A DNA stretch of 64,000 nucleotides from Octopus vulgaris (Eukaryota), in contig OX597814.1 of NCBI GenBank assembly GCA_951406725.2, positions 8,990,001 to 9,054,000 of the forward strand, read 5' to 3'. Shown here piece by piece: positions 57,900-63,649 of the stretch. The translations under genes were made by a program, and so were the position numbers. The notes under the pieces were generated by a model. The model did no database searches, had not been told where the DNA came from, and saw only the letters and a list, made by a program, of their open reading frames with translations. Numbering within the stretch: the stretch's first letter is position 1; every line of letters starts with the position of its first letter.

Positions 57900-58107
57900 T
57901 TCTACTTTAGGCACAAGGCCTGAAATGGGTGGGGGCAGTTGATTACATCAACCCAGGTACACAAATGGTAATTGATTTATCGACCCCTGAAAGGATGACA
58001 GGTAAAGCTGGCCTCAGTGGAATTTGAACTCAGAACGTAAAGATGGACAAAATACTGCTAAACATTTTTCTCAGTGTGTTAACGATTCTGCCAGCTCACC
58101 TCCTTAC

Positions 58108-58142
<35 letters not shown>

Positions 58143-58350
58143 TATCCTTTCTATTATAGGCTTGAAATTTTGGGGGAAGGGGTAAGCAAATTATATTGAC
58201 CCCAGTGCATAACTGGTACTTATTTCATCAACCCCAAAAGGATAAATGATAAAATTAACCTTGGCTGAATTTGAACTCAAAATGTAGAGACAGGCAAAAT
58301 ACTGCTAACCATTTTGTGCATCATGCTAACAATTCTGGCAGCTAGCCAAC
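57900..58350 (-). mobile_element. Two tandem type B SINE copies separated by (TAA)n
   Basis: Both contain gaatttgaactca..aaatactgctaa..aattctg.cagct, the reverse complement of the SINE head. Confidence 0.75.
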
Positions 58351-58399
58351 TTAATAATGATGGTGGTGGTGGTGATAAATTGAAATAACAAGAGGTGAA

Positions 58400-59828
58400 A
58401 TGTCAATATTACATGAACCAATCTGTAGAAAGAAGAAATGCTTTCAGCAAAAGAAACATTGCAACAAAATCTCAAAAAATACAAAGATTTTAGAGAAGAA
58501 ACAAATTTTACAAACAAAGTAAACTGTTCACATCCAATGCGAAAACATTCTACAGAGAAATAAGGAAGGAGAAAATAAGCTTTGAAGATCCCCCTACCAT
58601 GGGAGAAGTTTAAAAGTTCTGGAAAAATATCTAGAATGATGAAAAGAGTTACAATTAAAATGCAGACTGGATTAGACACAGAAGGATCATACCAAAATTT
58701 ACCAGAACAAGCATGGGAAGACAATAGCAGACCTAAGGATGACACTCATGAAAGCCCATAAGTGGAAATCCCCTGGTAATGGTATGGTACCAAATTTCTG
58801 ACTTGTCTTGCTCTTATGCGCACAGGAAGAGTTAGTCCAGATATTCAATAAAATTATGAGAGATTCTGCAAAAACACCTGACTGGTTAGCAAGAGGTATT
58901 ACTTACCTTCTCCTGAAGAATAATGGAACCAACTTTCCCCAAGACTATCCACCCATGACATGTATAAAATTTTAACATCCATCCTCATGGAGAAAAACAT
59001 ACAAATTTATGGAACAGAATGATATTTTCCCCACTGAACAAAAAGGGTGCCGACAAGGCTCATATGGATGCAAAGACCAACTCTTAATGAATAGCATGGC
59101 CCTTGAGGAACTGTCATAGCAAATGCAGAAATATCAGTTCTGCATGGATTGATTATAAAAAAGGCCTTTGACAGCATGCTGCATTCATGGATCTTGAAAT
59201 CGCTGGATATCTTCCAAATTTCTCCTGTGATTTCACATTTCCTGAAGCACAACATGTCAATGTGGAATACAAATCTCCAGTTATACCACTCTGATGGAGT
59301 ACTGACCACAAAAGATATTAATATCAACTGTAGCATTTTCCAAGGTGACTCACTTTCATTCTTAATTTTCTGCATAGCCCCAATACTCATTACAAATGAA
59401 TTCAACAGAACAGGGTATGAATATTAAATTGGGAACAAGAAAACAAGTCATCTATTTTATGTGGATGACTTAAAACTCTGTGGCAAAGATGATAATGAGC
59501 TTGAAGGACTGCTACATACTGTGAAAGCATTTAGTGATGACATCAGGATGGAACTTGGTTTTGATAAGTGTGCCAAGGTCACTTTCCAGAAAGGAAAACT
59601 GAAGACCTCACATTCAGTGGAGTTGGATGTTGCCACAGTCATAGAAGAACTCGAGCAGGAACAGACAAATACCTTGGAATAAATGAGGGTTCTGGCATTC
59701 AGCATGCAAGAATGAAAGAGAAGGAATGGTAAAGGTGAGTTCAAGCAGTCCTAAAATCCAAGTTAAATGCAAATAACAAAGTGTTAGCTATGAAATCCTT
59801 AGCAGTTCCTGTTGTTATTTATAGTTTC
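58400..59828 (+). mobile_element. R4/Dong-type RT fragment
   Basis: WKSPG, EQKGC, KKAFDS..HSWI, IFQGDSLS, YVDDLKL, FGFDKCA-like motifs with frameshifts. Confidence 0.82.
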
Positions 59829-59839
59829 GGATCAATTAT

Positions 59840-60960
59840 CATTTGCCTATCATGGTCTGGTAAAGATCGGATTGTGGATTTATTACCACGCCATGCCTCT
59901 GCCACTCACGCCTAATGAATGGCTTTTGTCCCTCCATGTCTAAGATCATAGGCCTCAGCTCTGACAATGCAACAATTGTGTTTCGCATTGTAGAATTGGT
60001 TGAGCGCCACTCTCACTACAAGCACATCGGTCATAATGTTTTTTCTAAAAGCCTCGTCTAACTTTACTAGCTCTGCTTCTACTCATTTTCTTTCTACTGC
60101 TAATCCTTTGCTAAACGTTATCAATTCTACACTAACTGCCCTTTTCAGGGTGAACAACCATTTATTGCTGGCAATTGACCCTTGCAATACCCACTTAATT
60201 AGTTCGCTAATCCATTCTCTGAAATCTCTGCACATCAGCAATGAAGTGTTCAGCTTCCAATACCTGAGACCCTGTCTGTGAAGTCAACTGTACAGATCCC
60301 GAATTTGTGGTCTGTGCAGTCAACTACTTTAATATTGTCGATAACCTATACTATCCCTATCTCCTTCTCTACCCTATCTAGATACGATCTGGAAGACCCA
60401 GTGCCATACTGGCACATCAGTGAAATTCACTTGATACCTGTCAGATATTTGAAATTATTTGAGCAGATTTGTGAGGCTGTTTCACCCTCCTATCTGCTAA
60501 ACCCACACAGTCCCACTGTACATTTAAAATCCCATTCACATCTCCCACTAACACTAAAGAGTGGGATGTTTCCAGGAAAGTTTCTAGATGCCTGAAGAAA
60601 TCTGGTCATCCCACCCCTGTCGGGAAACAAGCCTGACAGTATGTCCTTCATTGCTGATCTTATCCAGCACCATTGACTTATCTTCCAGGTCCAGGAAAAC
60701 GGTCAGTATCACAAGATCCAGATTTTTTCAAAGCAACACAGCCACTCCACTCCTTGCTTCCAGATGAATTGGAGATGCATACACCTCATAGTCATCGTGA
60801 ATGGGTTGAAAGTCTTATGATTCAGATATTCTGGTTTCATTAATGGTCACCACATCAACATTCAGTGCCCTGAGGTTGTTGAGCAGGAGACTCTGCTTCT
60901 GCAGTGACCCCAAGTCACATGCATTCACAGTGACTATTCTGAATGTGACAATATTGTTGG
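59840..60960 (-). mobile_element. Tx1/L1-like APE endonuclease region, decayed
   Basis: Minus strand reads FRIVTVNACDLGS....LLLNNLRALNVDVVTINETR, an APE N-terminal pattern. Confidence 0.55.
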
Positions 60961-60996
60961 GAGAATAATAGGAATGAAAAAAACTTACCTGGTTTT

Positions 60997-61138
60997 TAAC
61001 ATTATTTACATTTGACAGATATTTGTCCTCATCTTGTTTGTTGTTAACATAACGTTTCGGCTGATATACCCTCCAGCCTTCATCAGGTGTCTTGGGGAAA
61101 TTTCAAACCTGGGTTCTCATTCCTGAGGTGTTTTTCGA

Positions 61139-61171
<33 letters not shown>

Positions 61172-62003
61172 GAGTGTTCAGGTCACTGCTTGGAATCGAA
61201 CTTGGAATCTTGAGGTTAAACACTACACTCTTAAACACTATGCCATATGCCCATGGGCAATTATGGAGTGAATTTTAGGGCTTATAAATCTAATATTTTC
61301 CTTAATACCGGTTCCCATATGCTGCTCATATCTGCCCTTGGTCTGCTTCAGAGGTTGTTGTGTCCTAGCATATGTGCTGCTTCTTTTAGTTTTCATATTT
61401 TCCAGTGGCATTCTCTGTGTATTATTTTAGCTTCATCCCAAAGGGGGAGGTGGTCTCTATTTTTCCATACATAATCAACTATACCTGATTTATCAATATC
61501 TCCTCATGTCACAGCTTTGCGATGTTCGTCTACCCTTATTTTGAGGGAGTGGCATGTTTCATATTTGTATAACCTACCACAGCTACATGGGATGGAGTAC
61601 ACGCAGTCTTTGATCATATTCTCTTCTATTGGTGGTTTTACTCGAAGGAGATATTTGCAAAGTGTTGTATTACTCTTGAACACTGTCCTGATGTCATATG
61701 GGTCACACATCTTTTGTATCTTTCCGGAGAGGCTTTTCACATAGGGTAGACAAACTGTGGACAGTTTATCGGTTTCATCCTCTCTCTTCTTCATAATTGG
61801 AGTGGATAGTATATAGTTTTGGGGTAGTTGTTGCTTAACAGATTGTTATTGAGCTTGATCATTTCTTCGTGGAGTGTATCAGGATCACTACTTATATTCT
61901 TTGCACAATGTTTTAGGCACTGAGCAATCCCTTTCTTTACACTGTATGGATGGTGAGAATTGAAGTTGAGGTATCGTTCAGTAAAGGTCAGCTTGTGGTA
62001 TAC
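60997..62003 (-). mobile_element. PLE 3' fragment (left arm of inverted pair)
   Basis: ORF 61504..61794 CLPYVK..CVYSIPCSCGRLY..ET...L..RV.EH; homologous to 62165-63212. Confidence 0.88.
61046..61091 (-). ncRNA. Minimal PLE-type hammerhead motif
   Basis: acac-CTGATGA-a-ggctg-gagggtatat-cagcc-GAAACGTT-atgt. Confidence 0.75.
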
Positions 62004-62908
62004 ACATCTTTATACTCTGGCCCCACCAGGAATATGTCCAAGTGCTGTTAGATCATGTGAACTCAATAACGCCATCCATACAGTTCACAAGGGAAAACGA
62101 AAAAGACAATCAGCTAGCATTCCTGGACGCATTAATAACACACACCAAGTATGGATTCAGGACATCCGTATACCGCAAGCCGACCTTCACTGGACGATAC
62201 CTCAACTTCAATTCCCACCATCCATACAGTGTAAAGAGAAGGATTACTCAGTGCCTAAAACATTGTGCAAAGAATATAAGTAGCGATCATGATACACACC
62301 ACGAAGAAATGATCAAGCTCAATAACAATCTATTAAGCAACAACAACCCCAAAACATACTATCCACTCCAATTCTGAAGAAAAGAGAGGATGAAATCAAT
62401 AAACTGTCTGCAGTCTGTCTACCCTATGTGAAAAGCCTCTCCGAAAAGATACAAAAGATATGCAGCCCATATGATATCATAACAGTATTCAAGAGTAATA
62501 CAACACTTCTCAAAACCACCAATAGAAGAGAATATGACTAAGAATTGTGTGTACTCCATCCCATGCAACTGTAGTAGGTTATACAAAGGCGAAACATGCC
62601 GCCCCCTCAAAATAAGGGTTGAGGAACATCGCAAAGCTGTGACATGAGGAGATATTGATAAATCGGGTATAGCTGATCATGTATGGAAACATGGAAACCA
62701 CCGCCCCCTGTGGGATGAAGCTAAAATAATAGACAGAGAATGCGACTGGAAAATATGAAAACTAAAAGAAGCAGCACATATGCTAGGACACAACAACCTC
62801 CTAAGCAGACCAAGTGCAGATATGAGCAGCATATGGGAACCGGCATTAAAGAAGGATAGGGAAATATTAGATTTATAAGCCCTAAAATTCACTCCATAAT
62901 TGCCCCAG

Positions 62909-62981
62909 GGCATATGGTGTAGTGGTTAAGAGCGTGGGCTATTAACCCCAAGATTCCGAGTTCGATTCCAAGCAGTGACCT
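62909..62981 (+). other. tRNA-like cassette (Pol III A/B boxes) inside the PLE 3'UTR; decayed mirror copy at 61180-61252
   Basis: tggtgtagtggttaagagcg (A box/D arm), ggg-ctattaa-ccc anticodon-like arm, gagttcgattcc (B box); acceptor stem does not pair. Confidence 0.7.
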
Positions 62982-63119
62982 GAACACCACCACCACCACT
63001 ACTATTATTATTACTACTACTAATAATAATAATGATAATAATAATATCAACAATAATAATAATAATAATATAGAAAAAATACCTTAGGAATGAGAACCCA
63101 GTTTTAAAATTTCCGCAAG

Positions 63120-63162
63120 ACACCTGAAGAAGGCTGGAGGGTATATCAGCCGAAACGTGTTA
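63120..63162 (+). ncRNA. Minimal PLE-type hammerhead motif with a 3-nt deletion near the cut site
   Basis: acac-CTGAAGA-a-ggctg-gagggtatat-cagcc-GAAACG-tgtt. Confidence 0.6.
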
Positions 63163-63649
63163 ACAAGAAACAAGATGAGGACAAATATCCGTTGAATGTA
63201 AATAATTTAAATAATGTACAGAATTCCTCATCTCTTAAATATAGGGCAGGTTGTCTCCCCCTATCCTCACCCCAATGGATTGGGTTGTTTGCTCCAGCAA
63301 ATTACCAAATATTCTCTTGGTGATAATTCTTTGAAAACTTCCTGTGGAAATAGGGTTTTTAGCTGTTTGTTGTTTGAACGATATGCATGTGTGTAGGTAG
63401 GGAGATTGTGGGTGTAACAAAATGTTCTTCTGTTATGTTGGTATGTAATTCATGAGACCTGCATTTTTGAGTTAATTGCTATCTACTTTGTAATGGTGCT
63501 GTCTTTACTTTGTAATTGCTGCTGCTGCAACTCCTGCTGTTGTTGTTGTGTGTGGTGTTGTTGATTGAGGATGTCCTCTCAACTTGCCCCAAACCAATAT
63601 GAGTTGTGGTGACATGATGAGGTTACAAAAGTGCTGCATTGGAAAGTGT

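Follow-up and report, generated by a model that had tools for sequence, protein, structure and literature searches.

The window, by which we mean the whole 64,000-nucleotide stretch of Octopus vulgaris DNA analysed (contig OX597814.1, assembly GCA_951406725.2), contains an old head-to-head insertion of a Penelope-like element (PLE), whose tRNA-derived head may well be the element's own Pol III promoter for both a short and a full-length RNA (probability about 0.5). The cassette in which this head is found is the pseudo-LTR (pLTR) of an abundant Penelope-like family and not a passenger of a 3′UTR.

The insertion consists of two arms, the left on the minus strand (62003 to about 60997) and the right on the plus strand (about 62004 to 63244), which are 84% identical over 1,068 aligned columns. 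As the original prediction had it, this is an inverted PLE pair in which both arms run from the GIY-YIG end through a tRNA-like stretch and a microsatellite to a hammerhead. The ORF stop precedes the tRNA-like head, which carries both A and B boxes; the microsatellite is (AAT/ACT/ACC)n and the hammerhead a minimal one. The features are:

62004–62878, plus strand: right arm, 5′-truncated and broken PLE ORF with RT thumb, linker and GIY-YIG-type endonuclease (CxC..H..H), recognized by homology to P0003 and L141
62901–62912, plus strand: leader and short palindrome TGCCC-NN-GGGCA, the site of most family 5′ ends and fold-back junctions
62908–62980, plus strand: tRNA-derived head, by sequence and alignment, with A box 62915–62925 and B box 62958–62969; top match tRNA-Arg
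62986–63070, plus strand: (ACC/ACT/AAT)n microsatellite, the 5′UTR of the next ORF, of widely varying length among copies
63090–63244, plus strand: ORF start (ATG at 63090), the first ~50 codons overlapping hammerhead and tail, with a homologous N-terminus in P0003
63102–63105, plus strand: T4 run, by arm and family comparison a private mutation of the right arm
63119–63161, plus strand: minimal type I hammerhead, core 63124–63130, cleavage triplet deleted
63215–63244, plus strand: PLE 'tail' of ~30 nt, in the right arm only, its final bases lost to deletion
61282–62003, minus strand: left arm, shorter broken 3′ part of the ORF by alignment, stop at 61284–61282
61180–61252, minus strand: left-arm tRNA-derived head, A box 61245–61235, B box 61203–61192
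61137–61175, minus strand: left-arm (AAT)n
60997–61120, minus strand: left-arm ORF start (ATG at 61120) and hammerhead (core 61086–61080, predicted cut 61051/61050), without tail
60985–60995, plus strand: left copy of a likely target-site duplication (TSD), the right copy being deleted in the window

The right-arm ORF shares 46% identity with residues 553–844 of an intact relative, P0003, and 81% with the 569-aa frame of the genomic copy L141. Its TAA stop (62876–62878, mirrored in the left arm) stands 29 nt upstream of the head, the +1 of which falls at 62908 in the right arm and 61252 in the left; the left A box is more decayed than the right. Both window arms are dead. The ORF start of the right arm already meets a stop at codon 6, and both hammerheads are damaged, the right one lacking the GTT of its cleavage site and the left one carrying a stem I mismatch beside that site. 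At two of three subfamily markers, one of them a CpG site, the two arms are mismatched. The T4 run of the right arm, against T3 in the left, had been read at the outset as a possible Pol III stop ahead of the ribozyme. The run is real, but it comes with a stop codon and only 15 of 125 cassettes contain any T4, and a role for it is not supported.

The right copy of the TSD survives, at 10 of 11 bases, in a nearby duplicate (L122). The segment 60985–63244 plus flank recurs twice on the same contig (L002, G000:C1:7926867-7929962; L003, G000:C1:8946562-8949657), with heads 100% and 99% identical to that of the window, as either segmental duplications or assembly duplicates. Window duplicates were excluded from the hammerhead- and head-anchored counts given below; the 62 ORF-anchored copies include a duplicate as well as the window arms themselves. 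The pair itself appears to be inserted in an older element (~59830–60990, minus strand, and beyond 63245), a frame of which (60818–60960) resembles what we take to be the start of an APE endonuclease; Pfam gave this assignment in the interrupted element no support. A decayed LINE reverse transcriptase fragment lies at 58400–59830 (plus strand; RVT_1 E = 5e-4), and another abundant short repeat, with 84 segments among the fetched loci, has two copies at 57910–58106 and 58150–58353, after AAT/ATC tracts.

Across the 2.8-Gb genome (227 contigs), the 34-nt hammerhead core had 2,676 exact matches and a 23-nt head motif 2,086, while the reversed controls had 0 each. Given that 16 of the 130 hammerheads in loci not selected by the 34-nt motif match it exactly, we roughly estimate the family at 20,000 copies. 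Of the 62 distinct ORF-anchored copies that have the stop region, 59 carry the head after the ORF stop and the other 3 are rearranged there. The cassette is therefore fixed in the family, which excludes a one-off SINE insertion, the case in which most copies were expected to lack it. A distant PLE query brought up 30 loci, each of them from the same family and none from a PLE family that could serve as a control, and no relatives of the family were found in viral contigs.

The cassette had originally been placed in the 3′UTR of the element. It does follow the ORF stop, but it is also the pLTR, and its hammerhead and tail are coding, as they lie within the first ~50 codons. In natural copies, an ATG ~34 nt ahead of the hammerhead core opens a frame that spans ribozyme and tail before reaching the conserved PLE N-terminus; L266, L267 and L270 read in this way, and L265 does likewise with breaks. 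This N-terminus is 43% identical to that of the intact 847-aa P0003 over 155 columns. When the 5′ part of the ORF was used as a query, the tail was found in register ~97 nt upstream, continuing into the ORF, at 18 of 30 loci. Partial tandems with the order ORF, stop, head, (AAT)n, ATG, hammerhead and ORF were recovered (L225/L260, L238, L265 and L269). In these the cassette directly precedes the ORF, a position that supports, among the roles first suggested for it, that of driving a following tandem unit. The element unit measures ~2.5 kb: 29 nt separate the ORF stop from the head, after which come (AAT)n, the ATG, hammerhead, tail and the remaining ORF.

The family has the features of an EN+ PLE of the Penelope/Poseidon type, namely an RT, a C-terminal GIY-YIG endonuclease with CCHH, and a tandem-derived pLTR with hammerhead and ORF start. 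The RT domain matched RVT_1 in L141 with E = 2.7e-6 and 27.7 bits, below the cut-off of 29.6, and in P0003, a 55% identical relative, with 43 bits. The endonuclease motif CVY..CxC..YKG..E..H..H is present in the window arm and in L141; Pfam GIY-YIG passes only in P0069, a 40% relative, with E = 0.23 in P0003 and no match in L141. Judged by eye, the linker is without the extra zinc-finger motif that passages of PMC8557442 give for Neptune and Nematis. Among 58 head-to-head pairs, the tail was on exactly one arm in 51, on none in 7 and on both in 0, and the outer flanks matched over at least 12 nt in 37 of 83 pairs versus 2 of 83 after shuffling. Inverted pair, tail and TSD are ordinary features of PLE insertions, as described in sections of PMC8557442 and PMC3846280.

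The two arms of a pair in the fetched loci share subfamily markers more than by chance (18/18, 43/48 and 59/72, versus 9.4, 27.2 and 43.0 by chance), which argues that both mostly come from one template or source. Many copies, L253 and L048 among them, start inside (AAT)n, as do a good number of the 32 headless arms described below, and some copies are inserted in such a tract belonging to another copy. The microsatellite may serve as a joining site and as a target for self-insertion; PAc is reported in PMC11167929 to cut ATT. In L270, L241, L239 and L262, 5′ pieces of the ORF of varied length are fused directly to the head or to the hammerhead unit. These joins are scattered rather than at a single terminator, which suggests template jumps.

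Neither the tRNA-like head nor the hammerhead was called by ARAGORN or Rfam (gathering and E-value thresholds), and five Rfam matches with E of 4.6–6.6 were dismissed as chance. The tRNA origin of the head is judged from its A and B boxes and from its alignment to the genome's own tRNA genes: against 35 distinct tRNA sequences of the same genome, the top three matches were tRNA-Arg (best z 7.7), and tRNA-Cys trailed them only slightly. The commonest letters of the A and B boxes in the family fit the consensus. A second tRNA-like half, considered for the GGTTCGAAAT stretch ahead of the hammerhead, was rejected (best z 2.6).

The hammerhead of the family is of the minimal type I, with the CUGANGA/GAAA core, G10.1-C11.1, a palindromic helix III region and the cleavage triplet. 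In 94 copies not picked by motif, CUGANGA was present in 79 and the full core plus cleavage site in 21; cofold prediction of a hammerhead pair did not yield an active dimer. Minimal type I hammerheads of metazoan PLEs, as they appear in parts of PMC4209133, share with it the short helix I, the extra base between 9 and 10.1, G10.1-C11.1 and the palindromic helix III region (AACGTT). Nothing of substance differs from those parts, and the octopus ribozyme additionally codes N-terminal residues of the ORF. Its free position N7 is T in 65, A in 27 and C in 2 of the 94 copies, which gives Asp or Glu in the ORF and thus dual coding; P0003 retains a similar peptide, TPDDG..PKRCV.

We analysed where copies end at their 5′ side in a hammerhead-anchored sample. 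From the first 100 matches listed, 90 were taken, each on contig 1, and 5 of these were dropped (the window pair and its duplicates). Among the matches listed, the 85 remaining arms comprised 32 without an aligned head, 17 that start within the head, 29 that start at its 5′ edge and 7 that extend 43–588 nt upstream. Accordingly, 29 of 36 head-reaching arms in this listed set stop at the 5′ edge of the head, versus 1.5–2.2 expected from the truncation rate upstream or within the head, and arms of this kind retain up to 7 leader bases. In a set of 61 solo arms whose head start is intact, 46 end no more than 7 nt from +1 and show no long fold-back, 14 are long fold-backs through the TGCCC-NN-GGGCA palindrome and 1 retains at least 8 genomic leader bases. 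Exact junctions counted genome-wide numbered 188 for fold-backs versus 129 for ORF-linked copies, and the fold-back junctions retain the 2-nt spacer of the palindrome. The retained leader and spacer suggest that the template began a few bases before +1, ~13–14 nt ahead of the A box, and we infer a Pol III transcript from the head with its start at about −6/−7 relative to +1. A start ~13–14 nt before the A box suits Pol III geometry. An RNase P cut at +1 was also considered and is disfavoured, since leader bases and spacer are retained. Of the ORF-5′-anchored copies that reach the head start, 4 of 5 run on upstream and 1 stops, suggesting that many long templates were multimers or circles or had started further upstream.

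In RNA-seq data (three runs of one study, ~6% of each, from an organism that may differ), depth stepped up two- to threefold at the head and 301–382 reads per run stopped fitting at −7, while the strands were equal and no start peak was seen. This pattern reflects how the copies are built as they lie within read-through transcripts, and it carries no information about Pol III.

The sense strand of the element is poor in T4 runs. Over its 2.5–2.8 kb, the column-commonest letters contain none with any of 8 reference copies, against 5.0 expected from composition (Poisson P = 0.007), whereas A4 runs number 31 against 33 expected. Per copy, 91 T4 runs were observed versus 419 expected, a count in which the copies are not independent, and the 42 open frames of natural copies hold 7 T4 versus 41 and 0 T5 versus 6 under synonymous shuffling. 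With the family's own codon use, the codon-aware probability of finding none was 0.05–0.07 on the three lowest frames and 0.08–0.76 on the other five; with composition-weighted codons it was ≤0.02 on 6 of 8 references. G4 runs are also low (0–1 versus 3.2 expected; 8 versus 22), A5 runs number 93 versus 139 expected, and copy L141 by itself is not depleted (3 T4 versus 3.1 expected). Eight other PLE relatives from metagenome contigs, which are T-richer (0.25–0.32 versus 0.22) and come from other organisms, had a normal 50 T4 runs versus 47.8 expected, and the LINE fragment of the window, a one-copy control, had 8 in 1,430 nt versus 4.7. T4 or longer runs occur within 40 nt downstream of 24 of 30 tRNA genes of this genome. 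Overall, the T4 depletion test is modest.

We hold it tentatively, at somewhat less than an even chance, that an autonomous coding element has replaced its Pol II promoter with a Pol III promoter of tRNA origin and rid its 2.5-kb ORF of TTTT, with Pol III making the genomic RNA and perhaps the mRNA, and with the terminal repeat amounting to a built-in SINE. Most likely a tRNA-Arg-derived sequence would have been captured into the pLTR and would then have taken over as promoter. Pol III would initiate ~6–7 nt before the head and, in the absence of a terminator, could traverse the ORF as far as the following repeat. Reverse transcription by the PLE protein would then begin at two sites close to the tail, as in Anolis PAc, for which passages of PMC11167929 describe an ORF that starts in the hammerhead and internal starts of reverse transcription at two sites bounding the tail. 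A start in the first repeat would leave 250–400 nt to the RNA 5′ end and produce a solo pLTR, to which snap-back at the 5′ palindrome, presumably frequent, would add a mirror arm; a start in the second repeat would produce long 5′-truncated copies such as the window arms. Protein would be made from uncut RNA, because the hammerhead cut lies 3′ of the one ATG from which the conserved N-terminus can be read, so that cleavage would take this ATG away. Cap-independent translation by self-cleavage, as presented in part of PMC13725137, offers no simple fit, as the cut is downstream of the ATG. The location of the Penelope promoter in the pLTR, given in an excerpt of PMC2377424, counts in favour of a Pol III head. 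Counting against it, rotifer PLEs with a Pol II-type promoter motif have palindromes at the pLTR 5′ end, according to a section of PMC3846280, and Pol III is deemed too weakly processive for autonomous elements in passages of PMC10886601.

The strongest alternative, which we regard as unlikely though well worth weighing, limits Pol III to short RNAs from the head that template only solo pLTRs, a built-in SINE, with the full-length template and mRNA supplied by Pol II read-through of tandems or host genes. This would explain both the peak of 5′ ends and the long copies that extend past the head in 4 of 5 cases, would yield a capped mRNA and has a precedent in the composite pLTR promoters reported in part of PMC2377424. 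It leaves the absence of T4 over 2.5 kb unexplained, as only the first ~350 nt need be terminator-free.

A weaker alternative, improbable in our judgement, treats the head as what is left of a tRNA SINE that was captured and does not act as a promoter, the pile-up of 5′ ends being due to RT drop-off or self-priming at the palindrome, to a Pol II start or to a processing site, and the T4 gap to chance. The long fold-backs at the palindrome fit such an origin, as do the palindromic pLTR 5′ ends in the relevant passages of PMC3846280, the low number of G homopolymer runs and the lack of a tRNA call by ARAGORN and Rfam. Yet three-quarters of the solo arms, the 46 of 61 noted above, end close to +1 and lack a long fold-back; a hairpin of 5 bp offers little resistance, and structure would presumably be expected to halt RT on the 3′ side of the head. 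The agreement of the A and B boxes with the consensus and the T4 gap also weigh against it.

That the short copies form a separate SINE or Sm-alpha-like retrozyme lineage with a borrowed PLE tail, the window cassette being a SINE insertion, is very improbable and already largely refuted by the presence of the cassette in nearly all ORF-anchored copies and by the following comparison of solo and ORF-linked copies. Stand-alone copies from head to hammerhead, which the original prediction suggested looking for, are present in bulk. Among the hammerhead-anchored matches listed they outnumber ORF-linked ones by 29 to 7, and they resemble head-body-tail SINEs, with an A/B-box tRNA-derived head at their 5′ end. 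However, they are colinear with the pLTR and ORF start and do not constitute a non-coding lineage apart from an autonomous partner. No variant separates linked from solo cassettes (10 columns, lowest P = 0.054), and three haplotypes are common to both, accounting for 12, 9 and 8 of 37 ORF-linked and 32, 21 and 14 of 88 solo cassettes. These shared haplotypes indicate that the short copies are solo pLTRs and not a separate SINE lineage. At 30 loci examined, copies were single or head-to-head, with a direct second hammerhead unit only in L048 and a doubled head in L044; the non-coding head-to-tail hammerhead arrays of non-LTR retrozymes and Sm-alpha were not found at these loci. Nor did we find evidence for the Sm-alpha-like tandem retrozyme or primer roles initially proposed for the cassette.

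The preferred reading, with a Pol III promoter in the head, sets the octopus family beside several known systems. Penelope/Poseidon PLEs, as described in parts of PMC11167929 (PAc), PMC2377424 (D. virilis Penelope) and PMC3846280 (Adineta Pen2a), share with it the RT and C-terminal GIY-YIG domain, a pLTR in which the ORF starts and whose hammerhead cuts 3′ of the ATG, the 30–40-nt tail at one end, the inverted 5′-truncated arm, the TSD and a promoter in the pLTR. Their described promoters are of Pol II type (TATA-less internal with an intron, or TATA/Inr-like), whereas the octopus family has an A/B-box head and an ORF without T4. Schistosome Sm-alpha/Sj-alpha, going by passages of PMC6765202 and PMC4918200, likewise place a type I hammerhead after a tRNA-type Pol III promoter, but are non-coding tandem repeats with a canonical hammerhead, while the octopus unit provides an autonomous element with its terminal repeat and ORF start and lies dispersed or head-to-head. 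The TRIMp3 elements Cassandra, Helenus and Ajax, in the sections of PMC10886601 that treat them, share a small-RNA-derived Pol III promoter in the terminal repeat and a proposed origin by SINE insertion. They are non-autonomous LTR elements of 0.3–1.3 kb, in contrast to the autonomous 2.5-kb octopus PLE, and their autonomous partners must, according to the same sections, use Pol II. The octopus element is a variant of PLE in which the terminal repeat is headed by a tRNA-type promoter sequence.

A full-text literature search, with most matches judged by their listing, found no PLE with a tRNA-derived pLTR promoter and no Pol III-transcribed autonomous retrotransposon. Ohshima and Okada reportedly described tRNA-derived octopus SINEs in 1994, in a paper cited by PMC4758252. 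Some of these SINEs are reported to be of Arg origin, and one of them may be the octopus solo pLTR under a SINE name. The sequence may already be in the repeat library of PMC13282606, in Repbase, in Dfam or in the 1994 octopus SINE paper; the words 'hammerhead' and 'ribozyme' are absent from the portion of PMC13282606 covered, as are 'tRNA', 'promoter' and 'octopus' from that of bioRxiv 10.64898/2026.07.22.740005.

Pol III ordinarily makes only short non-coding RNAs. If correct, its reading of a whole PLE ORF would break the rule, stated in passages of PMC10886601, that autonomous retrotransposons need Pol II, and would raise the question of how an uncapped RNA is translated. An internal promoter would also solve the problem of promoter regeneration noted for Penelope in part of PMC2377424, and a terminal repeat acting as a built-in SINE would show a direct route from a PLE pLTR to SINE-retrozymes of the Sm-alpha type. 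From the sharp 5′ ends across thousands of copies, both where the RNA starts and where fold-back occurs during PLE integration can be mapped in a testable way, and some annotated octopus 'SINEs' may be solo pLTRs.
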